Source of the DNA: Vampirovibrionales bacterium
Lineage (GTDB): Bacteria > Cyanobacteriota > Vampirovibrionia > Vampirovibrionales > Vampirovibrionaceae
Assembly: GCA_039794365.1 (NCBI GenBank)
Contig: JBDIVN010000006.1
Span: 71,390-135,389, forward strand
Reading direction: 5' to 3'
DNA length: 64,000 nt
Shown here piece after piece: positions 109 to 58,824 of this stretch (within the stretch, counting starts at the first letter, position 1; each line of letters opens with the position of its first letter). Below the pieces are notes generated by a model. It made no database searches, was not told the DNA's origin, and worked only from the letters and a program-made list of their open reading frames with translations. A program made the translations under genes and the position numbers.

Positions 109-513
109 CTAATCAACCAGTTCGATCACGGCCATCGGTGCCGCATCGCCCCGGCGCGGAGGCGCCTGGATGATACGGGTATAGCCGCCCTGGCGTTTTT
201 CAAACCGGGGGCCGACGTTGCGGAAGATCCGGCGCAGAACGGTTTCAGGAATTTCCTTGCCGCTTTTGCCGTCCTGGATCAACTCACCGGTTTTCTGGTT
301 GTAGATCAACCGGGAAACCTGGCGGATGGCGTGGAGATCGCCGCGCTTGGCCAGCGTAACGATCTTGTCGGACACCTCTTTGAGGGCCTTGGCCCGCGGC
401 AGGGTGGTCGTGATCTGATCGTGGGTGAACAGGCTGGTGGCCAGGCTGCGCATCAGGGCCTTGCGTTGGTCGGCGGGTTTGCCGAGGTGATGAACTTTTC
501 TGCGGTGTCTCAT
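109..513 (-). CDS. rplQ: 50S ribosomal protein L17
   Basis: 134-aa ORF with the typical L17 sequence (RHRRKV…HLGK…); last gene of the alpha operon, downstream of rpoA. Confidence 0.9.
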   Translation of the reverse strand: MRHRRKVHHLGKPADQRKALMRSLATSLFTHDQITTTLPRAKALKEVSDKIVTLAKRGDLHAIRQVSRLIYNQKTGELIQDGKSGKEIPETVLRRIFRNVGPRFEKRQGGYTRIIQAPPRRGDAAPMAVIELVD

Positions 514-543
514 GGCGCTTTGGTTCCTGTCTTCTGAATCGCT

Positions 544-1524: not shown

Positions 1525-1583
1525 GTTCGGCAGAGGCCTCCAAAGAATTTCTGAAACTTTAAAAGGGGATGTGCGCAGTTTTC

Positions 1584-2183
1584 CTAGCGCGAGTAGTACT
1601 CGATGATGAGCTGCTCGTTAATGGTCTGGTCCATTTCCTCGCGTTCGGGAACGGAAAGGAACTTCACGGTCAGGTTTTTGACGTCGGTCTCGATCCACTG
1701 GGGAACGTGGGGAGAGCGGCCTTCCTGGAGGGCGGTCACCATCGCCCTGCTGCGCTCGCGGATGGTGATGACATCACCCGGCTTCATCAGGTAGGAGGGG
1801 ACGTTCACCTTCTGACCGTTGACAAGCACATGGCCGTGAACAATGATCTGCCGGGCCTGAGGCCGGGAATGGGCGAGGCCGGAGCGGTAGAAAATGTTGT
1901 CCAGGCGGCTTTCAAGGCGCTGGAGCAGGATGGTGCCGGTCACGCCCTTGCGGCTGGCGGCATACTGGTATATTTTGCGGAACTGCTTCTCCAGCAGACC
2001 GTAGGTCCGGCGCACCTTCTGCTTCTCGCGCAGCTGGATGGCATATTCGGACAGCTTCTTGCGGGCCTGGCCATGCTGACCCGACGGATAGGGACGACGC
2101 AGGCTCTCGGTCTTCGGATACCCGTCAAGGGTTCCGCCCGAATTGCGGGCCTGCTTGGTAACGGATCCTCTGTAACGTGCCAA
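1584..2183 (-). CDS. rpsD: 30S ribosomal protein S4
   Basis: S4 signature (ARYRG…LREKQKVRR.YG). The probable TTG start at 2183 is preceded by AAAGGAG; the track ORF extends to a GTG at 2231. Confidence 0.85.
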   Translation of the reverse strand: MARYRGSVTKQARNSGGTLDGYPKTESLRRPYPSGQHGQARKKLSEYAIQLREKQKVRRTYGLLEKQFRKIYQYAASRKGVTGTILLQRLESRLDNIFYRSGLAHSRPQARQIIVHGHVLVNGQKVNVPSYLMKPGDVITIRERSRAMVTALQEGRSPHVPQWIETDVKNLTVKFLSVPEREEMDQTINEQLIIEYYSR

Positions 2184-2200
2184 AACGGGGACTCCTTTGA

Positions 2201-2593
2201 TTACACGCGACGACGCTTGGGAGGACGGCACCCGTTATGAGGGATCGGGGTGACATCCTTGATCATGGTGATTTCGAGTCCGGCTACCTGCAACGCCCGG
2301 ATGGCGGTTTCCCGACCGGCTCCGGGGCCGCTGACGTAGACCTCGACGGAACGCATCCCCTGATCCATGGACTTACGGGCCACGGATTCGGCTGCCTGCT
2401 GGGCCGCGAACGGCGTCCCCTTGCGGGCACCCTTGAATCCGGAGCTGCCGGCACTGGCCCAGGCAATCGCATTGCCCTGCGGGTCAGTCGACGTCACGAT
2501 GGTGTTGTTGAACGTGGATTGGATGTGAACGGTTCCCTGGAGAACGTTCTTTTTCTCTTTACGCTTTTTGGTCGCTTGTTTCGGTTTTGCCAT
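2201..2593 (-). CDS. rpsK: 30S ribosomal protein S11
   Basis: 130-aa ORF with the S11 C-terminal motif (…[13 protein letters not shown]). Confidence 0.92.
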
Positions 2594-2649
2594 GGCGGTC
2601 TAACCTGTTCCTGTCGTCTCTATGCTTGCTGCTTCAAACGGGGACTTTT

Positions 2650-3018
2650 CTAGGCTTTTTTCTTCATCGGAGCGCCGCGACGGCCCCGACGGGTTCTGGC
2701 GTTGGTCTTGGTGCGCTGGCCGCGGGCTGGCAGACCTTTTCTGTGGCGCTGGCCGCGATAGGAGTTGATCTCGATAAGCCGCTTGACGTTGAGGCCCTCC
2801 ATCCGGCGAAGATCGCCTTCCACCTGGTAGTGGCTCTCAATCTCGTCTTTCAGGGCCGTCACTTCGCTCTCGGAAAGATCCTCGACCCGTTTGTCGGGAT
2901 CGATGCCGGTGGCTGCCAGGATTTTCACGCTCAGCGTGGACCCGATACCGAAAATATAGGGGAGGGCAAACCGGATTTTCTTTTTCCGGGGAAGATCGAC
3001 ACCTACGATTCTAGCCAT
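2650..3018 (-). CDS. rpsM: 30S ribosomal protein S13
   Basis: 122-aa ORF starting [10 protein letters not shown], which is diagnostic for S13. Confidence 0.92.
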
Positions 3019-3236
3019 TAACGACTCCTAAACTGTTCAAACCTGTCTGATTACGGACAATCTGCGGGTGGGGTCAATAAAGTAATGTAAAAACGATAGG
3101 GAATCAAGAGGTTACACCGAAAAACGCCGCGAGGGGATTAACTTTTGTAATTGTGCCGCCGTGGAAAGGACACGGCAACGGGCCGGTCGCAATGACCGGC
3201 ACCTTATTGCGACCCGTCGGCGCCCGCCATGGACAA

Positions 3237-3350
3237 CTAGCCCTGACGCTGCTTGTGCTTGGGGTTTTCGCAGATAATCGCCACCCGGCCCCGACGACGG
3301 ATGACCTTGCACTTTTCGCAAATCTTTTTAACGGATGCGCGCACTTTCAT
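3237..3350 (-). CDS. rpmJ: 50S ribosomal protein L36
   Basis: Hand-translated 37-aa [40 protein letters not shown]; it is below the ORF-track length cutoff. Confidence 0.9.
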
Positions 3351-3388
3351 GGCGGTTTGAAATCCTTCTTTCTTTCGTTGGGAACACC

Positions 3389-3607
3389 TTATTTTTTAAG
3401 CCGGTAGGTGATGCGTCCACGGGTCAGGTCGTAGGGAGAAAGCTCCACCTTGACCTTGTCGCCGGGCAATATCCGGATGAAATGCTTTCGTATCTTACCA
3501 GAAATGTGGGCCAGGACAACCATGCCGTTTTCCAGTTCGACCATGAAGGTCGCGTTGGGCAACGCCTCGTTGACGGTTCCTTCCATTTCAATGACGTCTT
3601 TGGCCAT
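3389..3607 (-). CDS. infA: translation initiation factor IF-1
   Basis: 72-aa S1-like IF-1 (MAKD…GTV…NA.F.VEL.NG…). Confidence 0.92.
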
Positions 3608-3660
3608 GGGTTTGTTTCAGCCAGCCTGTTCCATTTACACGCAAATCCGGATGCAACGCC

Positions 3661-4431
3661 CTAATCAAGGATTGTGAGGATGTCGGGATCACCTTCCGTA
3701 ACGACTACTGTATGCTCAAAATGGGCCGATGGCAAGTGGTCTGTTGTCAAGACGGTCCACCCGTCCTCGGCGGTGTAGACGTCGTCACCGCCCAGGTTGA
3801 ACATTGGCTCGATGGCCAGCACCGAACCCGGACGCAATACCGGTCCGCGCTGCCCCGTACGGAAGTTGTGAACGAAGGGTTCCTCGTGAAGCTTGCGCCC
3901 GACCCCGTGGCCGCCGTAGTTTCGCACCAGGCCGTAGCCGTATTTTTTATTCACATCCTCCACCGCGCCGGAGACATCCTCCAGGTGGTTGCCGTCACGC
4001 ATCATGGCGATGGCCGCAAAGAGGCTCTCCTTTGTGGCGTCCAGCAGCTTCTGCAGATCCTCAGGGATTTCGCCCACACCCGCCGTAAAGGCGGCGTCGG
4101 CAATCATGCCCTTGTACGTCGCGCCCACGTCCACGCTGATAACGTCCCCTTCCTTGAGGACCCGCTCTTCGCTCGGAATACCGTGGACCACCTCGTCGTT
4201 GACGGAGGTGCACAGCGTCGCGGGAAAACCGTAATACCCCTGAAACGTGGGCAGGGCGCCGGATTTTCGGACATGCTCCTCGGCAAGGGTGTCGAGTTCC
4301 TTGGTGGTGATGCCGGGGCGCAGGTTCTCGCGCACCAGGGCATGAACTTCGGCCACGATGCGGCCCGCCTTTTTCATCAGGCTGATCTCGTGGCGGGATT
4401 TTCGATCGACGGTTGCGCTCATAATACTCAT
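3661..4431 (-). CDS. map: type I methionine aminopeptidase
   Basis: 256-aa ORF with M24A motifs (…GATYKGM.AD…, GHGVG…HE.P). Confidence 0.9.
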   Translation of the reverse strand: MSIMSATVDRKSRHEISLMKKAGRIVAEVHALVRENLRPGITTKELDTLAEEHVRKSGALPTFQGYYGFPATLCTSVNDEVVHGIPSEERVLKEGDVISVDVGATYKGMIADAAFTAGVGEIPEDLQKLLDATKESLFAAIAMMRDGNHLEDVSGAVEDVNKKYGYGLVRNYGGHGVGRKLHEEPFVHNFRTGQRGPVLRPGSVLAIEPMFNLGGDDVYTAEDGWTVLTTDHLPSAHFEHTVVVTEGDPDILTILD

Positions 4432-32266: not shown

Positions 32267-32372
32267 CTGGGGACCCTTTTTGGGCGGGGGGGGCGAAAAC
32301 CTGGAAATAGCGTATCCTCCTGTCTCACATTCAAACCGGATGTTACAAGATTATATAAAGAAGGGAGAAGAA

Positions 32373-32456
32373 TGCGGAAGGGGGGACTTGAACCCCCACA
32401 GCCTTGCGGCCACATGCTCCTGAAACATGCGTGTATACCAATTTCACCACTTCCGC
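32373..32456 (-). tRNA. tRNA-Leu (anticodon CAG), long variable arm
   Basis: Hand-folded cloverleaf: acceptor GCGGAAG/CTTCCGC, T-arm GGGGG-TTCAAGT-CCCCC, anticodon loop TTCAGGA, variable arm GGCC-GCAA-GGC. Confidence 0.75.
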
Positions 32457-32737
32457 ATAGGAGCACCCTGACGGCATGCCAGGATCGATGTTTAAATATA
32501 GCCCGACTTCTCACGGGAATCAAGAGGGGAAACCGCGCTTTTCAATCTCAACCGGTTGGAGGATTTCAGGCCCCGTTGTTTGTCGGATAACTGGGGTGTT
32601 CTCCTCCGGACGCAGGAGCCGGTGGAACCCCTGTAAACCCGCTGCCCTCCTCTCGGAAACCATGTGAATGACAAAAAAAACGGCACAACGGGTTTCATGC
32701 TTATGGTAGGCTCTCGCGCACGAGGTAAAGGGTTGAA

Positions 32738-34408
32738 ATGGTTCGCAAACGGAAGGGCATATCGCATCCAGTCGAGGAACAGGAACTTCACGAAGTTGAA
32801 GTCTCCCGCCTCAAGCTGGCCCTGAAAACCGCGCTGGTTTTGCCCAGAAACCAGTCGGAGATCATTGAGGCCAATTCGCTGGCGTTTGATCTGCTTCAGA
32901 AGGAAGTGGAATGCGCCCGACTGTTCAACTTCGAGCTGCCGGAAGACCTCTCGATGGCCATGCGGATGCTGGAAAACGCCGTCTCCAACTTCACCCAGAC
33001 GGAAAAGAATGTCATCCTCGTCTTCAACGACCGGCTGGGAACGTATACGTGCCTCAACGACGAGATTCACCCGGACCGCAAACCCCGCGAGCTGACCCAG
33101 ATTTCCGACGGCTTTCTGCGGGATCTGCTGGATACCGACGAGGCGATGCACACGTATCTGTTCTCCGATGATTCGCTCATCGGCATCGTGGCCGTCGCCG
33201 AACCGAAGGATGGCCCGCTGGGCATCCGCCACGAGATTTTGCTGGAACTGGCCGCCCAATACCTGTCCACCAAGGTGCTGGCCTTCCAGAACCTCAGGCA
33301 GACCTTGACCCTGTCCCTCGTCCAGAAGACGGTGCTGGAGATTTCCGCCCAGCTCATCACGGCGGTAGATCAGGAGGGCGTGCTCATCGCCACCCTCGAC
33401 TCGCTCGGAAGCCAGCTGGACTTCGGCATCTGCCAGTACATCCACCTGGACCCGGAAACCGGCGTCGGGGAAGTGCTGCTGGAATACCGCCAGGGCGACA
33501 TTCACAGCTTCATCCATGCGGGCCTCAAGAGCAAGCGGCAGGTCATCGACGGCTTTGCCTCGCTGGTGAGCCTCTTTACCTCCGTCGCCCGTTCCAGCCC
33601 GTACCTGCACATTCCGGGCAACACCCTGGGGGAAAAGCCGCTGCATGAGATTTTCGGCATCCAGAAAGGCAAGAAGGCTGATCAGGCCATTCACTCGGCG
33701 GTCATTCTGCCGGTGATGGACCCGACCACGGGTAAGATTCGCGGCACCTTCAACCTGTACCGCACCCGGCCCCACCACATCGTGCCGGAGTCCCTGGAGG
33801 TGGCGAAAGAAGTGGCCGCCATGGTGTCGCTGGCCCTCAGCCGCGTCATGGTTCTGGAGCTGGCCTTGGAAATGGCCAGCACCGACGAGCTGACGGGACT
33901 TACCAACCGCCGGGGCTTCTACGACCGGTTCGAGGCGGAGATCGAACGCGCCCGCCGCAACCAGACCTCCCTCTGCGTGGCCATGGTGGACGTGGATTAC
34001 TTCAAACGCCTCAACGATACTTACGGACATCTCAGCGGCGACTGCGTGCTGCGCGAACTGGCCGAGATCTTCCGCCAGAGCCTGCGTAAAAGCGATTTGA
34101 TCTGCCGCTTCGGGGGTGAGGAATTCGCCATCCTGCTGCCGGACACTTCCTTCCAGGCGGCCACGGACCTGCTGGAGCGGATTCGCAAGACCGTCAGCCA
34201 GACAGCCATCCAGGGCATCGAGAACGAGGTCCTCCAGGTTTCCGTCAGCGTGGGCCTGGCCCAGGTGAACACGGATCGCGGCCTGGGGCGCCCCTCGCGC
34301 GAGGTGATTTCCGACGCCCTGGCCATTGCCGACGAACAGCTTTATCTCGCCAAGGAACACGGTCGCAACCGCGTCTGCGCCACCTGTGAGGGCCATTCGG
34401 CCCCTTAG
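32738..34408 (+). CDS. GAF domain-containing diguanylate cyclase (GGDEF, GGEEF active site)
   Basis: C-terminal …RFGGEEFAILLPD… with RxxD I-site context; N-terminal GAF-like region. The 658-aa minus-strand ORF over the same span is its shadow. Confidence 0.85.
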   Translation: MVRKRKGISHPVEEQELHEVEVSRLKLALKTALVLPRNQSEIIEANSLAFDLLQKEVECARLFNFELPEDLSMAMRMLENAVSNFTQTEKNVILVFNDRLGTYTCLNDEIHPDRKPRELTQISDGFLRDLLDTDEAMHTYLFSDDSLIGIVAVAEPKDGPLGIRHEILLELAAQYLSTKVLAFQNLRQTLTLSLVQKTVLEISAQLITAVDQEGVLIATLDSLGSQLDFGICQYIHLDPETGVGEVLLEYRQGDIHSFIHAGLKSKRQVIDGFASLVSLFTSVARSSPYLHIPGNTLGEKPLHEIFGIQKGKKADQAIHSAVILPVMDPTTGKIRGTFNLYRTRPHHIVPESLEVAKEVAAMVSLALSRVMVLELALEMASTDELTGLTNRRGFYDRFEAEIERARRNQTSLCVAMVDVDYFKRLNDTYGHLSGDCVLRELAEIFRQSLRKSDLICRFGGEEFAILLPDTSFQAATDLLERIRKTVSQTAIQGIENEVLQVSVSVGLAQVNTDRGLGRPSREVISDALAIADEQLYLAKEHGRNRVCATCEGHSAP

Positions 34409-35824: not shown

Positions 35825-35939
35825 GACGCCTTATCCGGCCCCTTTTGTAAAGCCCTGTTAAGCCAGCGCTCTCCGTCCGGCAATTTATAGATCCGCCCTG
35901 TTTTTTTTAAAAGGATTTTAAGGAACAGGGTGTATTTGG

Positions 35940-37721
35940 GTGTCCATGATGATGAATGTACAGGGAACTTCTTCTATTCTTCCTGCCCGTGTGGATTTTG
36001 GAACCGCAGTGGCAATCAGAACTCCGTCCTTCGGCAGCGATCGGTTTGAACCCGTGCGGTTCAGCCGCAGGAACGAAGCCGAGGACCCCGAACTGACCAC
36101 CGAGCAGTTGCTCAAGCGCGAAGCGCGACGCTACCCGGAACTCTCGCCGAAAGAACGGGTTGCCGTCCTGGCCCGGCTGTATGAAAATCCCGGCGACGAT
36201 GAAGCCCTCAAACAACTGATGATGCCTTTTCAGCCGCTGGCCCTCGCCATGGCCGGAAAATTGCTTTACCGGCGCGGCCTCGGAAACCATGGAAAGATCC
36301 AGCCCATGGACCTGGTGAACACCGGAAACGAGGCTTTTCTTAAAGCCCTTCATCGCAAGGGCATCAAGCTGGAGAAAGCCGAGAAGAGTTTCGTCAATTA
36401 CGTCACCACGCTCTATGCCCGGACAATGCTCCATTATATCTGGCGCAACCTGCGGCAGGTTCCGGAGACCCACAATGACCAGGTGGCCTTTCTCAAGCTG
36501 TTTGCCATCGCCCATCAGCTGGAAAATAAAAACGGACGCCAACCCACTCCTGAGGAAATCCTCACCGTTGCCACCGAGCAGGAGATGGAGCCCCGGTATC
36601 TGACCCTGATTGAGAAAATGCTGAAAGAAGGCCCCAAAGGCCATGAGCGTTCGATGGACAGCGCCATGGGCGATAGCCGCGACGACCGGCTGCTTGCGGA
36701 ATACATCGCCGACCCGTCTCCCACACCGGAGCATCTGACCCATATGGCCCGCGCCAGAGCGGCCATGGTCACGGCAGCAGCCGACGGTTTCACCCGCCTG
36801 ACCCCGCTGCAGCAATATGCTTTTGCCCGACACTATGGGTTGTGGCCGAACATGCCCGCCATTCCTCAGACAGAGATTGCCCAGGAACTGGTGACCCTGA
36901 CGGACAACCCGCGAGGGCGGGAATCCATTACGGTAGCCGAATTTACCGGCATGAAAACCCTGGCGGAAACCGTGGCACAGGCCCTCAACCTGTCGGGAGC
37001 GGATGACCTTTCCGTCTCTCCCCGCCATGCCACCCGCATTCTGCTGGACGAAATCTCTCCGGCGGAGGCGGCGACCTTTCTCCCGCCCCATGACATCATG
37101 CTCCTGCTGGTGAAGCTGGGCCAGCGCTTCGGCATGAAAAACCCCATGACCGAGATAAGCCCCGTCAACAGCCAGAGCCTCGGCAAACTCCATCCGGCTT
37201 TGCCGAAAAACCACAACGGCTATATGATTCGGTACGACTGGACCCAGCAGTTCAAGCCGAAGGCCTTCAACGAGCGCCTGGTGGAGATTCAGGAATTTCT
37301 GGCCGCCCATGCGGACCTGCACCTGGTCTACAAGAATGACCTCAACCCGTTTTCCCTGGACCCCAACAACCATAACCGGGAGCTTCGCATGGTGGTCTTT
37401 CCCCCGGTACCGGGCGAGTCGAGCCGCCCCCAGGTGTTCATGGAAAAAAGCGAAGGCACCGGCCTGATGCGTGAAATGCTCAAAGCCAAGCTGGATCGGT
37501 ATACACCCGAAGAGCAGGTGATCCTGAGCCGGTTCTTTGATCTCGACGAAACCGGCGAAGAGCTGACGACACGAGACATCAGCCGACTGCCCGAAGTCCC
37601 CTACTCCCAGGCCTACGTGTCGAAGATCAAGAACCGCATCGTGGAGGAGGTTCAGGCTGAAATCCGGCGCCGGTACCCCAACGGCTCGCCCATTTGGGAA
37701 AAAGCGCCCGCCGGCGTTTAG
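35940..37721 (+). CDS. atypical large sigma-70-family-like protein (region 2, region 4, plus extra C-terminal region-4-like module)
   Basis: Region 2-like DLVNTGNEAFLKALHR…FVNYVTTLYARTMLHYIWRN; region 4-like LTPLQQYAFARHYGL; a second HTH-like block LSRFFDLDETGEELTTRDISRLPEVPYSQAYVSKIKNRIVEE near the C-terminus. Confidence 0.5.
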   Translation: MSMMMNVQGTSSILPARVDFGTAVAIRTPSFGSDRFEPVRFSRRNEAEDPELTTEQLLKREARRYPELSPKERVAVLARLYENPGDDEALKQLMMPFQPLALAMAGKLLYRRGLGNHGKIQPMDLVNTGNEAFLKALHRKGIKLEKAEKSFVNYVTTLYARTMLHYIWRNLRQVPETHNDQVAFLKLFAIAHQLENKNGRQPTPEEILTVATEQEMEPRYLTLIEKMLKEGPKGHERSMDSAMGDSRDDRLLAEYIADPSPTPEHLTHMARARAAMVTAAADGFTRLTPLQQYAFARHYGLWPNMPAIPQTEIAQELVTLTDNPRGRESITVAEFTGMKTLAETVAQALNLSGADDLSVSPRHATRILLDEISPAEAATFLPPHDIMLLLVKLGQRFGMKNPMTEISPVNSQSLGKLHPALPKNHNGYMIRYDWTQQFKPKAFNERLVEIQEFLAAHADLHLVYKNDLNPFSLDPNNHNRELRMVVFPPVPGESSRPQVFMEKSEGTGLMREMLKAKLDRYTPEEQVILSRFFDLDETGEELTTRDISRLPEVPYSQAYVSKIKNRIVEEVQAEIRRRYPNGSPIWEKAPAGV

Positions 37722-37839
37722 CCCCGGCCTCACCGCTTGCATCCAATCTGTTTTAATGTTTAATTATTAATCGAAAGAAACATCGGACGACCGCTGGCGT
37801 CCGGAAATCGATTTTTTATGAATCGCAGGGGGAAAGCAC

Positions 37840-39126
37840 GTGATTCAGTTTCGCGCGGCCATGCCGTCATGGCCCCAGCCGGTCCGGCCGGTGCAGCCAC
37901 AACAGGCCAACAATATCCTGCCGCTCTTTGGCCATACATCGACAGCAAAAACCATCCCGGCCCCAATTCCGGCTTATGACCCGCCGGTGCCCTACCACCT
38001 GATGCAGCTCTTTCAGAAGGTTCCCAAGACGGAAAACCACCTGCATCTCTCCGGCTCGGTCCCGGAGCGCACCATTGAAAAGTTCATGCGCGAAAACGGC
38101 CTGGATGAAGCGCAGATCAAACAGCAACTGGGCATGCTGAAATCCGAATACAAGGACCTGAACGATTTCCTCGCCACCTACTACGTCGTCCCCGCCCATG
38201 TGAAGACCAAAGCCCAGTTCAAGGAAGCCACCCTGGAGCTGGTGAAAGAGGCTGCCCGCGAAAACGTGCGGGTGATGGAGGTGCGCAGCAGCGTGCTGGG
38301 CAAGGGCGATTCCGGCGAGGAACTCATTGACGCCATCCAGGACGGGCTGCGCGAAGGAAGCAACTGGGTAAAGAAACACCACGGCTTCGACATGAAGGTC
38401 AGCTACACCGTGCTGGCCCAGCGCTACAAAGACCCCAAAGAGGCTCTGGAACACGCCAAGCTGGCGGTGAAAAAGGCGGCGGAGCCGGGCAGCCTCGTGC
38501 GGGGATTCGATCTGGCCGGCAGCGAATCAGACCATTCGCTGGAAAAATTCCAGGAAGCCTTCGACTACATCAATCAATACGGCAAGCCGCTGGGCATGGG
38601 CCTGACCATCCACGCGGGCGAGACGCCGATGTCCGAAAGCCTTTCGGGCACCCAGGCCATCCGCAAGGCGCTTTCGATGGGGGCGGATCGCATCGGCCAC
38701 GGCATCCAGGCCGAATCAGACGAGGAGTTGCGCCAGCTGCTCATCAAAAAACAGATCCCCATCGAGGTCTGCACCTGGTCCAACGTGCAGCTGGGCTATG
38801 TGGACCCCTATGACAAGCACCCCCTGAGCAACTTTTTACGAGACGGCATGAACGTAAGCCTCAGCACGGACAACCGGATGATGTCGCAAATTACCCTGAC
38901 CCGGCAGCTGGGCCAGCTCTGGGCACATGGGGTGGTCAAGACCTGGGACGATCTGGTGCGCCTGACGTTAAACGGCGTCCGCATGTCCTTCCTGCCCGCC
39001 GACGAGAAGAAGGCGGCGGAACAGGAGGTCATCGCCGAATTTAAAGATCTCGAACGGCGTTACGCCAAAACCATCGACCAATACCTGCCCCGCGCCCCGC
39101 AGGACCAGCGGGTGTGGTTCGGCTGA
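37840..39126 (+). CDS. adenosine/adenine deaminase family metallohydrolase with N-terminal extension
   Basis: HLHLSGS metal motif, IHAGE and SLSTDN motifs; GTG start. Confidence 0.75.
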   Translation: MIQFRAAMPSWPQPVRPVQPQQANNILPLFGHTSTAKTIPAPIPAYDPPVPYHLMQLFQKVPKTENHLHLSGSVPERTIEKFMRENGLDEAQIKQQLGMLKSEYKDLNDFLATYYVVPAHVKTKAQFKEATLELVKEAARENVRVMEVRSSVLGKGDSGEELIDAIQDGLREGSNWVKKHHGFDMKVSYTVLAQRYKDPKEALEHAKLAVKKAAEPGSLVRGFDLAGSESDHSLEKFQEAFDYINQYGKPLGMGLTIHAGETPMSESLSGTQAIRKALSMGADRIGHGIQAESDEELRQLLIKKQIPIEVCTWSNVQLGYVDPYDKHPLSNFLRDGMNVSLSTDNRMMSQITLTRQLGQLWAHGVVKTWDDLVRLTLNGVRMSFLPADEKKAAEQEVIAEFKDLERRYAKTIDQYLPRAPQDQRVWFG

Positions 39127-39147: not shown

Positions 39148-39603
39148 TCAGGCAGGCTCCAGGGACGACGTGCACATCTGGCAGCGCTTGGCCTGGACGG
39201 GGATGCTGGCCAGGCAGAAGGGGCATTCTTTGTTATCGGGCGGATCGTCGCGGCGCTCCGGGCTGAACTTGAGCCGGTTGATCTGTTTAATCAGCAGGAA
39301 AACGGCGAAGGCCACGATGATAAAATTGATAATGGTGCTGATAAAGGCGCCGTAGTTGATGGTAACAACCCCCGCCGCCTGGGCTGCGGCCAGTGACTCG
39401 TACTCGCCGCCTGAGAGGTTAATGTAGTAGTTGCTGAAATCCACCCGGCCCAACAGAATACCGAGGGGCGGCATGAGGATGTCGTTGACCAGCGAGGTGG
39501 TGATGCGGCCAAAGGCGCCACCAATGATGATCCCTACGGCCAGGTCAATGACGTTGCCGCGCAGGGCGAACTTCTTGAATTCCTGGAGCAGTCCCAACGC
39601 CAT
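39148..39603 (-). CDS. mscL: large-conductance mechanosensitive channel fused to a C-terminal Cys4 zinc ribbon
   Basis: MscL TM1/TM2 consensus (…[21 protein letters not shown]…) followed by CPFC…CQMC. Confidence 0.8.
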
Positions 39604-47961: not shown

Positions 47962-48254
47962 AATAGACAGACGTACGGATTTGACTTGTTGAAACGTTAC
48001 GGGGGATCTTGTGCGCTACTTTCGCTTTCCTACCGGTTGCATAAAAACCTGCTTTTGATTTTTTGTGACAGCCTGTTTTGGCAGAGAACGGGGCGTTAGG
48101 CTAAAAACCTCTCCCCGAAAGCCTTTCCCATATTAACTTTTTTAATTTTTATAAGTCTTTTATATTTGCTACAGATGTACCAAATCTATCTTCAGGCGCT
48201 AAAAACCCGCTTGTTTTTCAAGGCGGGTCTGGTGGTATAACGAAAAACCTCGGC

Positions 48255-48560
48255 TTATGCAAAAACGGAGAGGCCGGAACTGATGGCCTGCTGGCGGCGA
48301 GCCGTCTCCTGCTTCTGCCGCTTTCGGGCCGCTTCGGCCATCAGCGAGTGGGCCTCGTACATGGAGGCGTTCAGGTTATTTTTCATCTCCAACTGGGTAT
48401 CCGCCTGGGCAATCTGCCCCAGAAAACGCGGATTGTTGTAGTTGGCGGCGGCACGATTCGCCAGCCCCATGCGGGCTTCGTTATTGCTCTGGATGCCGAA
48501 CGCGGCGTTGTTGGCGCCGTTAATGCCGCTCAGCCCTGAAAACAGCGTAATTGGTGACAT
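48255..48560 (-). CDS. small-protein family member C (C-terminal …ISSGLSVFA)
   Basis: ATG at 48560 with GAAGG upstream; N-terminus MSPITLFSGLSGINGANNAAFG; Asn/Ala-rich. Confidence 0.5.
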   Translation of the reverse strand: MSPITLFSGLSGINGANNAAFGIQSNNEARMGLANRAAANYNNPRFLGQIAQADTQLEMKNNLNASMYEAHSLMAEAARKRQKQETARRQQAISSGLSVFA

Positions 48561-48862
48561 AACAACCCACAGCCTTCTTTCATCTACTCGACGTCTTTAA
48601 GCATTAAACCCGTTTTTCCGATTTTGTTGCCACCTCAAAATGATTCATTTTGTATATACAGACAGCCACCAGCAAGAAATCCGCACGCTACAACTCATAC
48701 CCTGAGAGTGTTCCCAAGATCATAAAAGTTATTCGCTATGGTTTTTCAGAAACATATGCCATAGTGGTTAAAACAACCTCTCAGACTGAAGCGACCCGAT
48801 CCGCCGCCTCAGCGAGGCCATACACACCCACTCCCTGTTTCCAATTCAGGAGTTGTTTTGTC

Positions 48863-50338
48863 ATGACCAATTCTCCAAACCCATACCCCATTAGGCCGGA
48901 AATCGATCCACGGGCTGAATCCGCCTTACCGGTGATTCTGGAAGGAAGCGTCCGCAAACACGAAACCCTTCCGCCAGAAGGACGAAACCGGACGGGCGGA
49001 CTGCTGCAAGCCCTGCTCATGGAGGCCGCCAACATCAAGCAGGCGATCCGTCAGCAGAATGACCACCTGGGTGACGACCCGGATGCGTTCAAGACGTCCG
49101 GCCTGATCCAAATCCCCCGGTTTGAACCCCTGCCCGATGCCGCAGAACTCAACGCCGAACTGGATCGCCGTCAGCCGAACAGAAACACCGGGATGAAGGC
49201 GATTCACAATGCCGTCATCCAGAACGAAATCGAAAAGGAAAAAGCCCGCCGTCAGGCCATCCAGATGGAGGCCGTCGATCAACAGATGGCCCGCCTGGCC
49301 CGCGCCATCGTGGAAACGGCTGAAGCGCAGAAGATGCAGCAGGCCCGCAGCTTCCACCGCCAGCAGGCCACAGCCTTTGATACAATACCGGGAATCATCC
49401 CCGGCTCCCTGGCCCGCCACGGCATCGGCCAGACGAACATACGCCCTTTGATTGCCGAAAGCCTGCCGATTGTTCACGCCATCCCCGGCGCCCAAAAACC
49501 AATCAGCCGCGCCGACTACCTCCGCCAGCAAAACGCCCTCGCCATGGAACGCGCCCAACGCGATGCCCTGTACGCCCAGCAGCGCTATTATGAGGAACAG
49601 ACCCGCCAAGAGCGCGTCCGACGGAATGTGGAATACCAGCAGCGTTTGAGAACCGGAAATCAACAGCAGGCCTTGGCTCAGCCGGTAAAAGTTTTCCCCC
49701 AGGCTCAATCCTCCTCCCCAGTGCCTGGAAGTTATGCTGAGGCTCTTAAAACCCTTGATGCTCTAACTGATAAAATAGATCAGGTAATCGAGAGCCTTCT
49801 TGAAGCAATACCGTTGCCTCCTCAGCAGGCTTATCAAATGGTTCAGGCTGGTCATCTTAGTCAGGTACGAACAAAGCGCGTCTCCCTATGGTATAACTGG
49901 GGCGATATACTAAAGGCTCCCCACGTTACTGCGGGTAATGCAAAGACCATTCCCCTTTCAGCTTACGAAAACGCCGTGGATCTGGCGGAGGCTTTGGACA
50001 GAGTCTGCAATAATCTGGGTTCCAAGGCTCCTATTAATAACTGGATCCGTCCAGGTAATCGCCGCTACCACGGCCAGGGTCTGGCAGTGGATTTTGAAGG
50101 AACGAAGGCCTGGAAAGACGGTCCACTTTATACAGCATTGAGACGAACTCCCGAGATCAAACGTATAGGACAACCTGATAATAACTATCCAGGAATGCAT
50201 GCGGATATTGGCCCTAATGGATGGGTTCCTGGGCGGCAGTTTCTTTTCATTGATAACGGATACTATAAACCTGGACGTGACTATACCGTTCCGGTTTTTA
50301 CTGGGCCACAATCGGCTCGTTTAAGGCCAGGAACGTAA
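48863..50338 (+). CDS. polymorphic-toxin-like protein: coiled-coil N-terminal region plus low-GC C-terminal M15/LAS-type zinc peptidase domain
   Basis: CAGGAG 11 nt before the ATG at 48863. C-terminal …RYHGQGLAVDF…GMHADIGP matches the H..G.AVD / H.D signature of M15 D-Ala-D-Ala carboxypeptidase-like peptidases. GC drops from about 62% to about 47% at about 49.71 kb. Confidence 0.55.
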   Translation: MTNSPNPYPIRPEIDPRAESALPVILEGSVRKHETLPPEGRNRTGGLLQALLMEAANIKQAIRQQNDHLGDDPDAFKTSGLIQIPRFEPLPDAAELNAELDRRQPNRNTGMKAIHNAVIQNEIEKEKARRQAIQMEAVDQQMARLARAIVETAEAQKMQQARSFHRQQATAFDTIPGIIPGSLARHGIGQTNIRPLIAESLPIVHAIPGAQKPISRADYLRQQNALAMERAQRDALYAQQRYYEEQTRQERVRRNVEYQQRLRTGNQQQALAQPVKVFPQAQSSSPVPGSYAEALKTLDALTDKIDQVIESLLEAIPLPPQQAYQMVQAGHLSQVRTKRVSLWYNWGDILKAPHVTAGNAKTIPLSAYENAVDLAEALDRVCNNLGSKAPINNWIRPGNRRYHGQGLAVDFEGTKAWKDGPLYTALRRTPEIKRIGQPDNNYPGMHADIGPNGWVPGRQFLFIDNGYYKPGRDYTVPVFTGPQSARLRPGT

Positions 50339-50340
50339 AT

Positions 50341-50673
50341 CTAGTCATTAGCAATATAGCTCTGAACAATACTACTAACCTCATTTTTACAGAAGTCAGA
50401 ATGGAGGGAAATTTCACCATTGGCATCAAAGCATCTGTCAGAAACAGCTTTCGCTCTTTTACTCCACTGCATGTCTTGTCCGGAATTAACACCACACTTT
50501 TCAAGCGCTTTTCTCATATCAAAGAGTGAATCCGCTTGTTTTTGAATAGTTTCCTGTTGTTCAATACGGTCTCTATGTAACCGTTCAACTTCATTTCTAC
50601 CCGTCCAAATGGTAACTATCATGCCTACTAGAAGCGCAGCAATCATAATATTTTTGATCACTTGGAACCTCAT
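50341..50673 (-). CDS. low-GC small membrane-anchored Cys-containing protein (candidate immunity protein)
   Basis: 110 aa with an N-terminal TM segment (IMIAALLVGMIVTIW) and 3 Cys; about 40% GC; stop lies 3 nt from the toxin stop, convergent. Confidence 0.45.
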   Translation of the reverse strand: MRFQVIKNIMIAALLVGMIVTIWTGRNEVERLHRDRIEQQETIQKQADSLFDMRKALEKCGVNSGQDMQWSKRAKAVSDRCFDANGEISLHSDFCKNEVSSIVQSYIAND

Positions 50674-50746
50674 ACCCGCCGAGTAACAACTCTATTTACC
50701 CATTCTACTAAGTAATTAGCACCATACAAGGCATAAATATTCGGCT

Positions 50747-51628
50747 TTGCTCAATATGATCACCACTGATGAGCACCGGGAACTGACCGTGGGCCTCAAG
50801 GCGGAAGTCGCCAAAAACTGGCTGCTGAACGATGGCCGCTCACTCGAAGATGGCCGTTGGGAGTACCGGGGTCAGGCGATGGATAACATCGAAGACGCCC
50901 AGTTGCTTGCCTATGCCGACGTAAAGAACGTCGAAGACACTGGCCGTCATCTGACCTCGGCCCAGTTGCAGAAAGCAGCGCTGGATATCGCTATGGGCGC
51001 TTATAAACTCTGGATCGGCGACGATATCAACACCCTGCTCGATCCTGAAGCTAATCTGCTGGAGAAAACCTGGTCCGGCATCTCCCTGGCCTCCAACTTC
51101 ATCCCCGGCGCTGCCATAGGTAAGCTGGGGCTGAAGACAATCACGGCCTTTAGAAGACTCAGAGGCATCACCAAGGCCAGTGGCAAGATTCCGGCGAATA
51201 TAGCCCGAAGTCCTCGAGCCCTTCGGCAGCTTCAGCAGAAAATGAAGCTGACCGACGCTCAAATTGCCGCTTTCAAAAAAGATCCCACAAAATTCAGAAA
51301 CGGACGATTTGAGCACATCGAAGTCTACAAGGGACCGAAAGACACTGCAATTTTTCGGACTAAGATAAAATCCAATATTGCAGATGGCTCTCATACGGTT
51401 AGAGAGTACCTAGTAGATAAAAATGGAAAGCTCTTGTTTCAAGCGCATAAAACTCAACTGAGAAACGGCTCTTTTCGTCATTGGCGAATCGATCAAGAAG
51501 GACCTTTTTCGGAACTTTTTCAAAAAGCAGCTAGGCGTGGCCAAAAGGTAAAGCCACAAATTGATGGACCCTTCGAAGATGAATATTACAATACTTGGCA
51601 ACAAATATTAGACAAGGTAGGAGAATAA
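50747..51628 (+). CDS. orphan polymorphic-toxin C-terminal module (conserved pretoxin segment plus low-GC toxin tip)
   Basis: 293 aa. The first about 150 codons are at genome-like GC and the last about 140 at about 42% GC. No secretion domain; followed by a translationally coupled small gene. Confidence 0.45.
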   Translation: MLNMITTDEHRELTVGLKAEVAKNWLLNDGRSLEDGRWEYRGQAMDNIEDAQLLAYADVKNVEDTGRHLTSAQLQKAALDIAMGAYKLWIGDDINTLLDPEANLLEKTWSGISLASNFIPGAAIGKLGLKTITAFRRLRGITKASGKIPANIARSPRALRQLQQKMKLTDAQIAAFKKDPTKFRNGRFEHIEVYKGPKDTAIFRTKIKSNIADGSHTVREYLVDKNGKLLFQAHKTQLRNGSFRHWRIDQEGPFSELFQKAARRGQKVKPQIDGPFEDEYYNTWQQILDKVGE

Positions 51629-51629
51629 T

Positions 51630-52025
51630 ATGGAAACGGAAAAAGAGATTCTGGATTCATTGGTTGCTTTTAACCGGCCCTTAGAGGAATTGGTGCCTTT
51701 AGTATGGCCGCTTAAGTTTCGGTATTCCGCTCCCATTACCCACATTACCCGGCAGGATATTATTTCAGTGATGAATCGTTATCTGGCCGGAGAATTTGAC
51801 GGAGATACGCTGGAATTTTGGGCCGATCTCGTCTTTGATCGCCTCTTTTATGATGTACCGACCAGTGGCCCCCTCGAAATGGAAACAAACTATACAGATG
51901 CCATTGACAATGTGTTGGAAATTCTGACATATGAGCCTGAGCGGGGGCATCCACACACGCCGGAGTTTATCCGTCAGCTTATTGACGAACTGGAAAACGC
52001 CAAGCTTGACCCTGTGGAGGCTTGA
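51630..52025 (+). CDS. candidate immunity protein (acidic, 131 aa)
   Basis: ATG lies 1 nt after the stop of 50747..51628 (TAATATG); acidic with no TM; paralog at 52276..52692. Confidence 0.45.
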   Translation: METEKEILDSLVAFNRPLEELVPLVWPLKFRYSAPITHITRQDIISVMNRYLAGEFDGDTLEFWADLVFDRLFYDVPTSGPLEMETNYTDAIDNVLEILTYEPERGHPHTPEFIRQLIDELENAKLDPVEA

Positions 52026-52074
52026 TTCAATCTGCACATTTAAAAACCGAATAGAATAGGCAAGTATCAAGAGA

Positions 52075-52108
52075 GCGGCTGATGGAACCTTCCATCAGCC
52101 TTTTTTTA
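52075..52108 (+). terminator. rho-independent terminator
   Basis: GGCTGATGGA-ACCT-TCCATCAGCC stem-loop followed by T7. Confidence 0.7.
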
Positions 52109-52275
52109 GGTCCACCCATTCCTATGAGATTTTTGTTCCCCTTGTACAGGATATTTTGGTAAAATAGACAAAGAACCTTTCGAGGTTTTCTGATTAGGGA
52201 GAAGATTTAACGTTCAGTGGGTGAATACGGGATTATATTGGAGAATGCGAAGTCTCTAAGTGTAATCTCGAGAAT

Positions 52276-52692
52276 ATGGCGTGGTTAGAAAGGAGCCCGG
52301 TGGTGATCGCTGAAGACAAAATAAAGCCGGTGGTTCAGGCCTTTGTGAAACAGGGAGGGTATCCCTCTCCCGAGGATCGCAAAAATGTCTGGCAGTTTCA
52401 TGAGCGGAACTGTCCTGAACATGCCTTTGTCATCGCGACTCGAGCCGATGTGATTCGGGAAGCAGACCGGTTTCTGAATCAGGAAATCACCGGTGCAGAC
52501 CTGGCGGCATGGGCTGATGGCATTATTTTCCTGGCCGGTGGCGGCCTGGTTGAATATGACCCGGATTACCGGGACGAGATTGTCAACGCCCTGGAAGAAT
52601 TGGCAAGTGAAGAAGAAAACCTGACGCTTGAAGTCATAACGCGAGTCAAGAAGTCTTCCATAGAGAACGGTGAGATGAATTTCAGTTTTTAA
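52276..52692 (+). CDS. orphan immunity-like protein, paralog of 51630..52025
   Basis: Shared block YLAGEFDGDTLEFWADLVF vs FLNQEITGADLAAWADGIIF; its 3' flank and terminator are a diverged copy of 52035-52108. Confidence 0.45.
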   Translation: MAWLERSPVVIAEDKIKPVVQAFVKQGGYPSPEDRKNVWQFHERNCPEHAFVIATRADVIREADRFLNQEITGADLAAWADGIIFLAGGGLVEYDPDYRDEIVNALEELASEEENLTLEVITRVKKSSIENGEMNFSF

Positions 52693-52726
52693 AAACCGGA
52701 TAGAGCAGGTAAGTACCCAGGAGAGC

Positions 52727-52756
52727 AGCTGATGGAAATTCCATCAGCTTTTTTAC
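52727..52756 (+). terminator. rho-independent terminator (duplicate of 52075-52108)
   Basis: AGCTGATGGA-AAT-TCCATCAGCT followed by T6. Confidence 0.65.
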
Positions 52757-52757
52757 G

Positions 52758-53540
52758 TTATTCAAATTCGTCGAAGTCATCCGGCTCCTGGGGGATTTCG
52801 TCGGGGAGGGCGTCCATGACTTCCAGGGCCATCTTGGCGGCGGCCTGCTGGGCCTCCTTCTTGGAGGCGCCCTTGCCGTAACCCATCACCTCGTCATTGA
52901 TCAGCACCTCGATATAAAACGTCTTCTTGTGGGCGGGGCCGCTTTCGCGGGCCGTGCGATAAACGGGCAGGCCGTCGCCTTCGGCCTGGGTCAGCTCCTG
53001 CAGCACCGCCTTGAAGTTGTCCTTCGTGGGGCTTAAGTCCACCTGGGTCACTTCGTCTTCGAGTACTCGCAGGAGCATCTCGCGGGCCGCCGCCATCTTG
53101 CCGTCGAGAAACAGGGCGCCCAGCAGGGACTCGAATCCGCAGGCCAGGTTGGAGGTTTTCTTGCGTCCCCCGCTTCTCGCCTCGCTGACGCCAAAAATCA
53201 TGTATTCCCCCAGGTTCAGCTGCTGGGCGAATTTGGCAAGGGTGGCATCGCTGACGATGACCGCGCGAATCTTGGTGAGTTCGCCCTCGCGGTAATCGGG
53301 AAAGCGTTCAAAAATATACTCGCTGACGATGAGCTTGAGCACCGCGTCACCGAGAAACTCCAGGCGCTCGTAGTTTTCAAGGTGCGAAAGCTTGTTCTCG
53401 TAAGTATAGGAACTGTGGGTCAGCGCCCGGTCATAGATTTCGTAGATGCTTTCATGGGACGGCAGATCGATGCCCAGACTGTCGAGCAGTTCGTCAATCT
53501 GGCGCATGCGTGATTCGTCAATGCCGTAAGGATAGGTCAT
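52758..53540 (-). CDS. rnc: ribonuclease III
   Basis: RNase III signature (ERLEFLGDAVL) plus the C-terminal dsRBD. Confidence 0.9.
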   Translation of the reverse strand: MTYPYGIDESRMRQIDELLDSLGIDLPSHESIYEIYDRALTHSSYTYENKLSHLENYERLEFLGDAVLKLIVSEYIFERFPDYREGELTKIRAVIVSDATLAKFAQQLNLGEYMIFGVSEARSGGRKKTSNLACGFESLLGALFLDGKMAAAREMLLRVLEDEVTQVDLSPTKDNFKAVLQELTQAEGDGLPVYRTARESGPAHKKTFYIEVLINDEVMGYGKGASKKEAQQAAAKMALEVMDALPDEIPQEPDDFDEFE

Positions 53541-53594
53541 CGCGAGCGTCCCATATTCCCAAGGCCCTTAAAATCTTAAAATATGGACCGCTTT

Positions 53595-54461
53595 TCAGGG
53601 AAACAGGGGAAGGAGATCTTTGACCAGCCCCTGCTGAAGAACGACCCAATGAATATAATAATACGAGATTGCGCCGCAGAAAAGATAACTGTCCAGACGG
53701 TCCAGCAGCCCGCCGTGCCCCTGGAAGAGTCCGCCGGAATCCTTCACCCCGGCATCCCGCTTGATGAGGGATTCGGCCAGGTCGCCCAGCTGAGAGACCA
53801 CCACCAACAGGACACTGAGGAGCAAGGCATGGAGCCAGTTGAAATACGCCAGGAAGGCAAAGCCGGTGCCGGCGATAATGCCCACAACCAGCCCGCCGAT
53901 GGCTCCCTCTGTGGTTTTCTTGGGGCTGATTTCCGGGTAGAGCGGGTGTCTGCCCATCAGTTTGCCCACGTAATACGCCCCCACATCGGACATACTGATG
54001 ACGAGCACCGTGAAAAAGACGTAGTAGGCACCCTCGGCAGAAACGTTGCGCAGCAGAATAAAGTGCATGGGCAGGAAGGCCACGTAAAAGATGGCCAGAA
54101 ACGTGGCGCCAATGTCGTTGATCGTGGCACGGGGTTTGCGAAACAGCAGCCGGATGAAGCTGCCGATAATCCCCAGGGTGATCATGGGCAGGAAGTACTG
54201 GGTCTTGTCGAAGTGGGCCAGGAGGATCAGCGCAATGCCGGTGGTCAGGACGATCAGCTGGGAAGGCCGGATATCCTTGGCCTTCATGATGGAGGTCAGC
54301 TCCCGGAACCCCTGGTAGAGGGTAAACAGAACCGCGCCGGTCCAGACCCAGCCGCCGGTAAAGATCAGGGTCGCCATCACGCAACCCAGCAGGATTCCCA
54401 TCCCCACCCGGCGGCCTTTGCGCGGAGCAGCGGGAGGCGTCGCCAGTTGTTCTTCTGTCAT
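53595..54461 (-). CDS. cdsA: phosphatidate cytidylyltransferase
   Basis: 288-aa multipass membrane protein with the C-terminal CTP-transferase signature (…GHGG..DR.DS…). Confidence 0.85.
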   Translation of the reverse strand: MTEEQLATPPAAPRKGRRVGMGILLGCVMATLIFTGGWVWTGAVLFTLYQGFRELTSIMKAKDIRPSQLIVLTTGIALILLAHFDKTQYFLPMITLGIIGSFIRLLFRKPRATINDIGATFLAIFYVAFLPMHFILLRNVSAEGAYYVFFTVLVISMSDVGAYYVGKLMGRHPLYPEISPKKTTEGAIGGLVVGIIAGTGFAFLAYFNWLHALLLSVLLVVVSQLGDLAESLIKRDAGVKDSGGLFQGHGGLLDRLDSYLFCGAISYYYIHWVVLQQGLVKDLLPLFP

Positions 54462-57842: not shown

Positions 57843-58463
57843 CTAGACCAGTTTGAGTTTCTGGGCGATATAGGCCGCCTGCATCCGGTTGGAGACTTCC
57901 AGCTTGCGGAAGATGCTGGCCAGGTGGTTCTTCACCGTGGTTTCGGAGATGGACAGGATATCGCCGATTTTGGCGTTGGAATGCCCCTGCGCAATGTAGC
58001 GCAGCAACTCCTGCTCACGCGGAGTCAGCATTTTCAGAGCCTCGCCCAGACGCTCATCTTCGGGGTCCTTCATATTCTGGGCCGCCTCGTTTTCCCACTG
58101 GGAACGGCGCGACATCGCCTCGATATGGGCCAGCAGAACACCGGGGGTCACGGGCTTGATGAGATATTCATCGGCGCCGCGCCGCAGGCCCGCTATCTTG
58201 GACTGCTCCTCGTCGGCGCAGGTCAGCATGATAATCGGCACGTTGGGCCGGTGTTCACCGCTTCGGATATATTTTAACGTTGCCCAGCCATCCATCTTCG
58301 GCATCTGAACATCCAGAATCACCATATCATAGCGGACATCCGGGTTGGAAAACTTCTGGATACCGGCATAGCCGTCCTCGGCCACGTCCACCTCGTAACC
58401 AAACATCGTCACCATGTCCCGGATCAGGAGGGGATCGTCGTCAATAAGCAATATTTTTAGCAT
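57843..58463 (-). CDS. NarL/FixJ-family response regulator (REC + LuxR HTH)
   Basis: Receiver D(D)…D…K motifs and a C-terminal LuxR-type HTH (…LTPREQELLRYIAQGHSNAKIGDILSISETTVKNH). Confidence 0.85.
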   Translation of the reverse strand: MLKILLIDDDPLLIRDMVTMFGYEVDVAEDGYAGIQKFSNPDVRYDMVILDVQMPKMDGWATLKYIRSGEHRPNVPIIMLTCADEEQSKIAGLRRGADEYLIKPVTPGVLLAHIEAMSRRSQWENEAAQNMKDPEDERLGEALKMLTPREQELLRYIAQGHSNAKIGDILSISETTVKNHLASIFRKLEVSNRMQAAYIAQKLKLV

Positions 58464-58824
58464 GCGTCGTTCTATGCCGTTCCTTTTTACCGAAGAAACC
58501 CGGTACCCCCACACAGAAAAAACTGGGGTGGCCGTCAGTCCTCACTTTCCGCTGATACACAACGCCGTTTCACGGAGGTTTCCCTGCATTCTGCCGTTTG
58601 CAATCAACCGATGGGCTGTTTTACTCATGTTCTTTTATAGTTGTATACCATGCTACTCATAGTATTCAACCTGAAAATGTTCGGGATCTGAAAAAAAATT
58701 CGTATACTGGTTTACATATAACTTAGCTTTATTTTAGCCGTTTTTCAAGTTTTTTGGAAGTCCGGCGGGGCTTGTGCGATGATAGGTGCCTGGATTGTCC
58801 GCCGGATCAAGGGAGCGATTGCGC

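Follow-up and report, generated by a model that had tools for sequence, protein, structure and literature searches.

Sigma factors are thought to read promoters through one region 2 and one region 4. Two separate DNA-reading modules occur within a single sigma polypeptide in σ54 (RpoN), and C-terminal extensions of sigma factors, as described for the extracytoplasmic function (ECF) sigmas, are to our knowledge regulatory rather than DNA-binding. Here we describe a gene in a 64,000-nucleotide stretch of DNA from a Vampirovibrionales bacterium (contig JBDIVN010000006.1, positions 71,390 to 135,389 of the forward strand; hereafter, the window), the product of which is a sigma-70-family protein of about twice the usual size with two region 4-like helix-turn-helix (HTH) modules. 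Group 2 and 3 sigma factors (σS, SigA, FliA/WhiG, SigB/F/G, SigE/K) share with this protein the order and spacing of regions 1.2, 2, 3, 3.2 and 4, but the window protein is only about 21–24% similar to them and carries ~245 extra C-terminal residues, including the second region 4-like module. σ54 belongs to an unrelated family, and no σ54 model matched the window protein in Pfam or NCBIfam scans.

ECF sigmas with C-terminal extensions resemble the window protein in that there is no adjacent anti-sigma gene and a conserved domain is fused after region 4 (PMC8999054, in part). The types described for them are SnoaL-like, TPR, WD40-like, Cys-rich and anti-sigma-like (PMC8999054, in part), and an HTH or other DNA-binding domain inside an ECF extension is not mentioned in the portions of literature text searched. 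In contrast, the window protein has regions 1.2 and 3 in its core, and its extension, which has an HTH at its end, shows no relation to SnoaL, TPR or Cys-rich domains. "Non-canonical" patterns, with essential domains present in duplicate, are allowed for by a survey of cyanobacterial sigma architectures, the searched portion of which holds no description of the arrangement seen here (PMC11119718, in part); nor did the titles and abstracts searched contain a sigma factor with two, tandem or second sigma4 domains. Taken alone, the extension has the "one-component regulator" layout of LuxR/GerE (NarL/FixJ-type) proteins, in which a sensor or α/β domain precedes a four-helix HTH that shares homology with sigma region 4. 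It differs from these in that its HTH has no Pfam GerE match, its α/β domain is not a receiver, and the whole unit is fused to a sigma factor. The C-terminal domains of the RNA polymerase α subunit (α-CTDs) and class I/II activators provide an analogy of mechanism only, that of a tethered DNA-binding module reaching upstream of −35; there is no homology, and the tethered module here would lie within sigma itself. We rate what is new here as an extension of a sigma-70-family factor and not as a new kind of system.

Judged by sequence, residues ~45–349 make up a complete and very divergent sigma-70-family factor with regions 1.2, 2, 3, 3.2 and 4, closest to the group 2/3 sigmas and most likely an orphan alternative sigma factor. 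When compared with an alignment of 20 ordinary sigmas, residues 41–317 were matched at normal spacing (hhalign, 99.8%, E = 7e-29). Among PDB sequences, B. subtilis SigA was matched by phmmer over query residues 59–262 (E = 3.4e-5) and C. difficile SigA by a two-sequence profile (E = 2.9e-6), and the stretch that an earlier note on this DNA had likened to region 2 does lie within the segment aligning to sigma regions 1.2–3. BLASTP aligned residues 45–345 with 18–293 of P0002 (E = 1e-14), a 296-aa protein carrying Pfam r1.2, r2, r3 and r4 (Sigma70_r1_2 at its residues 26–59). The core together with the first region 4-like module (module 1) matches PHROG_351 (E = 4.7e-11, profile positions 483–704), and Foldseek searches with the AlphaFold2 (AF2) model returned σS and SigA chains as best matches over ~300 columns (σS E = 1e-5). 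Since regions 1.2 and 3 are present, the core is not of the ECF (group 4) kind.

Further to that, an exhaustive HMMER search of 1.84 billion representatives returned 35 proteins besides the one full-length relative discussed below (P0001), and all eight of those scanned with Pfam were sigma factors. Several are ordinary sigmas of ~290 aa, in which the match spans the query from ~45 to ~335–344 and ends near the end of the matched protein. None of the 35 reaches the extension, and the best matches stop by query residue ~344.

At the same time, every curated Pfam and NCBIfam sigma cut-off is missed by the window protein. The only Pfam match, Sigma70_r3, is sub-threshold (E = 0.15), and the r2 and r4 models give no match at E ≤ 10; on P0001, Sigma70_r3 reaches E = 3.7e-4 and 21 bits, short of the 25.3-bit cut-off. 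The best NCBIfam model is FliA/WhiG (TIGR02479), with 23 bits against a cut-off of 189.6, besides weak RpoD and σ32 matches. The aromatic motif of region 2.3 (YATWWIRQ) is absent, the query reading FVNYVTTLYARTM and P0001 FVDYLGTTYARTM against an A3 consensus of F.TYA.WWIR; where group 1/2 sigmas have two tryptophans, region 2 of the query has T and L, and the "EGN" motif of region 2.2 reads "ASY" in P0001. Loss of the WW pair is common among group 3/4 sigmas.

Module 1 follows region 3.2 directly, with no large gaps relative to the 20 ordinary sigmas. In the alignment with P0002, LTPLQQYAFARHYGL (residues 287–301) falls on the region-4.1 motif of ordinary sigmas, in agreement with the earlier note, which had also counted "about 300 extra residues" after this point; there are 292. 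AF2 places helices of module 1 at 263–285, 289–298, 310–321 and 326–348, with a predicted local distance difference test (pLDDT) score of 70–84 up to ~320 and 61–66 over 321–350, where the recognition helix lies. At its recognition helix the hhalign and PHROGs alignments have already ended (residue 317), and those of BLASTP and hmmsearch continue to ~345 with weak identity; the helix has a net charge of +1 to +2, compared with 3.7 ± 1.9.

The HTH at residues 529–567, which the earlier note had compared with a −35-recognition element, belongs to a second module (module 2) near the end of the protein. Five NCBIfam sigma models match it through their region-4 part at the very C-terminus (SigE at E = 3.6e-5, SigK and SigB/F/G, to 0.055), and it aligns with the whole of region 4 through the recognition helix (hhalign 82%, E = 1e-5). 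It also matches PHROG_351 (E = 1.1e-3) at positions 663–725, which overlap the 483–704 covered by the core and module 1, and such a double match over overlapping positions exceeds chance. In a fold search against BFVD, the last ~75 residues drew small matches, among them a phage "Sigma70_r4 domain containing protein". A region-4-only hidden Markov model (HMM) derived from the 20 ordinary sigmas was run against 547 open reading frame (ORF) segments of the window plus P0001, and it ranked the window protein and P0001 first of the 548 sequences, with two matches in each. Its independent E-values (i-E) for modules 1 and 2 were 4e-4 and 7e-4 in P0001, and 1.6 and 2.2e-4 in the window protein, where it is module 2 that finds support from our own HMM. 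The recognition helix of module 2, SQAYVSKIKNRI, resembles the SigE/K/F/G type. Pfam GerE (PF00196) matched neither residues 501–593 nor the whole protein at E ≤ 10, compared with 7.8e-21 for a NarL-type control. Within the σ4/LuxR superfamily, module 2 looks sigma-like rather than LuxR-like by its sequence. Of the two, module 2 is closer to a canonical region 4 by sequence; module 1 conforms in its position and 4.1 motif but has a divergent recognition helix. The two modules show no mutual BLASTP similarity, which argues against a recent duplication and rules out an internal duplication of module 1 as the source of the second module.

The only homologue found among ~15 billion public proteins is P0001, a protein of 590 aa that is collinear with the window protein from end to end at 53% identity and is encoded on a 5.1-kb Logan contig of SRR30654426. 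No further members of the family turned up when 5.8 billion clusters were searched by word index with the full protein or when the 1.84 billion representatives were searched exhaustively with HMMER, nor in GTDB species genomes, JGI metagenomes (scanned with two different seeds) or IMG/VR viral contigs, nor by tblastn in phage and plasmid records. Word-indexed searches with the extension alone missed even P0001, and their null results are uninformative on rarity. The extension is the best-conserved part of the protein, with 64% identity to P0001 in the α/β domain and 74% in module 2, compared with ~49% in the sigma core, 51% in module 1 and 29% in the tether that joins module 1 to the α/β domain. 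Similarity at the DNA level survives only at 37224–37687, that is, over the end of the α/β domain and module 2, and the folded segments show low nonsynonymous divergence (dN) relative to a saturated synonymous divergence (dS). As the long form is kept in the relative and the extension is constrained, we conclude that this form is real and under selection, and not an artefact of assembly or frameshift.

The reading that we prefer, held tentatively and with somewhat less than even confidence, is that of an alternative sigma factor with a tethered second head, which would read an extra promoter element upstream of −35. It fits best because the anatomy is that of a full sigma factor followed by a floppy tether and a tightly conserved α/β and HTH unit; residues 350–383 look like a flexible, fast-evolving tether of ~35 residues. 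The core (residues ~45–349) would bind RNA polymerase in the usual way, and module 1, which comes directly after the 3.2 linker at normal spacing, would for that reason be the one seated at −35 on the β-flap. Upstream of −35, in the zone used by α-CTDs and class I/II activators, the tethered unit would then bind an additional DNA element, and the α/β domain would position or gate this second head. The outcome would be a built-in activator or a third specificity determinant, possibly offsetting the divergent recognition helix of module 1. A more specific form of this proposal, in which two region 4-type heads split or extend promoter recognition, define a tripartite promoter class in a bacterial lineage that is hardly sampled, and use the α/β domain as a new gating or positioning fold, is possible but on the doubtful side. 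If the proposal were true, it would be a natural case of promoter specificity extended within sigma, through a second conserved region 4-type HTH on a tether, and could be of use in the design of orthogonal synthetic sigma/promoter pairs. Its significance is limited by there being two metagenomic members, a poorly sampled host lineage, and a function that lies beyond what sequence by itself can establish.

Several observations weigh against a tethered second head. Module 1 taken alone is weak: it scores an i-E of 1.6 with the region-4 HMM, nothing in NCBIfam recognises it, and hhalign stops before its recognition helix, so that it could be a degenerate relic. The same HMM also catches a NarL/FixJ-type response regulator (REC + GerE) at 57843–58514 (−), and with this cross-match to a LuxR-type protein module 2 is certain only as a member of the σ4/LuxR HTH superfamily. 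The candidate recognition helices of both modules carry less positive charge than average (net 0 to +2, compared with 3.7 ± 1.9), and charge fails to tell which of them binds DNA. No upstream motif is shared by the two loci, where the score of the upstream alignment was reached by 110 of 300 shuffles, and this leaves no candidate target. The family consists of two sequences, which makes covariation and deep-alignment structure prediction impossible, and the AF2 models are modest (mean pLDDT 60 and 68).

It is conceivable, though doubtful, that the extension acts as an autoinhibitory or sensory tail, by analogy with ECF41, ECF42 and ECF238: with the α/β domain as the sensor of a ligand or partner, the unit would fold back on the core so as to prevent or permit binding of RNA polymerase or the promoter, replacing an anti-sigma factor. 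No anti-sigma gene adjoins the sigma gene at the window locus or at the P0001 locus, an observation that fits the tethered head as well, and ECF sigmas without anti-sigmas typically bear extensions that contact σ2, σ4 or the linker (PMC8999054, in part). The extension being more conserved than the core is also what would be expected of an intramolecular or ligand interface, for which the invariant polar and aromatic blocks RYDWTQ and NHNRELR of the α/β domain could form a binding site. However, a complete, conserved HTH with a group 3-like recognition helix (SQxYVSKI) would be superfluous in such a tail, the precedents are ECF sigmas (σ2–σ4) whereas the core here has region 3, and the extension, with neither cysteines nor c-di-GMP motifs, has no counterpart among known anti-sigma or sensor families and folds. 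The suggestion of a fused sigma/anti-sigma in the earlier note finds no support: there is no match of the extension to an anti-sigma family in Pfam, NCBIfam, PADLOC or PHROGs (the latter giving a sigma family only, over module 2), no cysteine, no RsiG or PilZ motif, and no anti-sigma structure among the fold matches. The segments quoted in that note are all where it placed them, and membership of the sigma-70 family, double size, two HTHs (matched twice by the region-4 HMM) and conservation of the long form in the one relative were all borne out. Its other suggestion, recognition of two promoter elements, would be consistent with the anatomy.

That module 2 rather than module 1 is the working region 4, contacting the β-flap and −35, with module 1 and the α/β domain forming a large lineage-specific insertion that separates region 3.2 from region 4 and module 1 a degenerate relic, we consider unlikely. 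Module 2 is the best-conserved segment of the protein, the only module that curated sigma models recognise alone, and the one for which the alignment runs through the full recognition helix; that of module 1 lies outside the hhalign match and has Pro and Gly (PRGRES). Against this, module 1 has its 4.1 motif at canonical spacing and is conserved like region 2 (51% vs 50%, dN/dS about 0.09), which is not what a relic leads one to expect, and the poorly conserved tether after it (29% identity) resembles a fusion linker and not a part of a domain. In the part of the survey consulted, which dealt with 4193 cyanobacterial sigma factors, accessory domains occur at the termini only and never between essential domains (PMC11119718, in part). 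Least probable of all, and by our estimate very unlikely, is that the protein is no working sigma but a stand-alone regulator made of sigma-derived domains, or a decaying fusion, which has lost binding to core RNA polymerase: the missed curated cut-offs (Pfam r2 and r4 without a match; FliA/WhiG 23 vs 189.6 bits), the replaced −10-melting tryptophans and the change of "EGN" to "ASY" in P0001 speak for it, but all regions are in order at normal spacing, loss of the tryptophans is a common trait of group 3/4 sigmas, and neither gene is disrupted, their collinearity at 53% identity and the low dN of the folded segments showing that the gene is not decaying.

The α/β domain, predicted by AF2 to contain five strands and two or three helices in ~120 aa, has two blocks invariant between the query and P0001, RYDWTQ.FKPKAFNERLVE and NHNRELRMV.FPP. 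It had no match in Pfam, NCBIfam or PADLOC, none by sequence in PDB and only a chance-level one in PHROGs (E = 0.34), and Foldseek searches of PDB and BFVD gave nothing at E < 0.01. We discarded a nucleotidyltransferase fold, for which the top matches were weak and mixed (Trf4, TUTase and RelP, but also ribosomal proteins and tyrosine phosphatases; probability ≤ 0.35) and no GS...DxD-type motif was seen, and a receiver domain, from which the order of α/β secondary structure differs and for which Foldseek returned no REC match. A second, degenerate sigma was also rejected: hhalign gave 1% for residues 350–465 against sigma regions, and a "region 3-like" stretch of the extension scored 1.5 and −1.7 bits, values reached by 28 and 208 of 1000 shuffles. 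A cysteine-based sensor of the ZAS or CorE type (HxxxCxxC or Cys-rich) does not apply to a protein with no cysteines and no CxxC. The idea of a c-di-GMP switch, suggested by a nearby GGDEF gene and the best match to FliA/WhiG, was dropped, with no PilZ motif or RsiG motif, E(X)3S(X)2R(X)3Q(X)3D (PMC8325347), in the sigma protein. Neither was a defence or phage origin borne out, as PADLOC gave nothing and PHROGs a sigma family only.

Table 1. Features of the gene and the protein it encodes (window coordinates; aa, amino acids; pI, isoelectric point).
Feature	Coordinates	Strand	Basis and remarks
Whole ORF	35940..37721	+	593 aa, sigma-70-family core and C-terminal extension; ORF list, collinear 53%-identical P0001
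N-terminal tail, residues 1-44	35940..36071	+	Predicted disordered, pLDDT 23-30; 18% identity to P0001
Region 1.2-like, residues ~45-85	36072..36194	+	Aligns with region 1.2 of SigA and P0002
Region 2, residues ~86-176, DLVNTGNEAFLKAL...FVNYVTTLYARTMLHYIWRN	36195..36467	+	hhalign vs 20 sigmas; own HMM i-E = 8e-30
Region 3 and region 3.2 linker, residues ~177-262	36468..36725	+	Own region-3 HMM, 37 bits on residues 171-262
Module 1, residues ~263-349	36726..36986	+	Region 4 at canonical position; 4.1 motif LTPLQQYAFARHYGL, first HTH helix; recognition helix RGRESITVAEFTGMKTL divergent
Acidic tether, residues 350-383	36987..37088	+	29% identity to P0001, dN/dS about 0.9, pI 4.4; low pLDDT at 352-364
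α/β domain, residues ~384-505	37089..37454	+	AF2 strands and helices, pLDDT 61-83; 64% identity to P0001
Module 2, residues ~506-579, YTPEEQVILSRFFDL ... SQAYVSKIKNRIVEEV	37455..37676	+	Complete region 4-like HTH; 74% identity to P0001
Short unconserved C-terminal tail and stop codon	37677..37721	+	

In the ORF list the gene begins with a GTG, and the true start may be one of the in-frame ATGs at 35946–35952. A 611-aa ORF on the opposite strand (35907–37742) overlaps it in full and is taken for a shadow ORF of DNA with 59% G+C. Nine of the 10 larger ORFs of the window without an NCBIfam name are also without a Pfam match, and some of these may likewise be shadow ORFs on the wrong strand.

The sigma gene stands alone between glgC on one side and an adenosine deaminase gene on the other, with intergenic gaps of ~115 bp each, and mscL and sdhCAB lie downstream. 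Synteny is not kept, as the neighbours of the P0001 gene are PFOR and MerR, and none of the 80 sdhA loci examined had a sigma gene nearby. In the window, the adenosine deaminase homologue (37840–39126, +) carries, ahead of its catalytic domain, a Pro/Gln-rich N-terminal extension of ~55 residues, its NCBIfam match beginning at ~56–62, and the MscL homologue (39148–39603, −) has a C-terminal tail with two CxxC pairs, zinc-ribbon-like and not expected in MscL. Two genes upstream of the sigma gene is that of a 556-aa diguanylate cyclase (32738–34408, +), with GGDEF at residues ~376–548 and an N-terminal region of ~370 residues of unassigned type; just upstream of it lies a tRNA-Leu (CAG) at 32372–32457 (−), the only RNA gene in the window by Rfam and ARAGORN. 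About 80 bp upstream of the sigma gene there is a direct repeat, TGTAAAGCC-C-TGTTAAGCC, with a 10-bp period (35846–35864, +). These are the sole exact copies of TGTAAAGCC/TGTTAAGCC in the window, matches with one mismatch are not enriched (19 vs 16 expected), and the motif was not found at the P0001 locus.

The window is chromosomal, given the rpoA and ribosomal-protein cluster at 109–4431 (−). This reads map-infA-rpmJ-rpsM-rpsK-rpsD-rpoA-rplQ, with rpoA identified by Pfam and the others named from their translations. The lineage appears from its sequence to be poorly sampled or poorly characterised: the SdhA of the window has at most 70% identity to any of 185,579 GTDB species representatives, with top matches scattered over many phyla. 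A 914-bp Logan contig (SRR35794088; DNA identity 88.6%) carries an exact match to the IF-1 protein, which indicates that a related species is present in raw public data, though no assembled genome is close.

Elsewhere in the window, the segment at 48000–54000 is low in G+C (46.5% at 50–52 kb, against ~59% elsewhere) and may be a horizontally acquired island; its ORFs 48650–50338 and 50747–51628 have no Pfam match, and the former has none in NCBIfam either. Finally, the gene at 18003–20942 (+) encodes a 979-aa STAND-type NTPase (AAA_16 / nSTAND1) with C-terminal TPR repeats, similar to signalling ATPases of the MalT/AfsR type.

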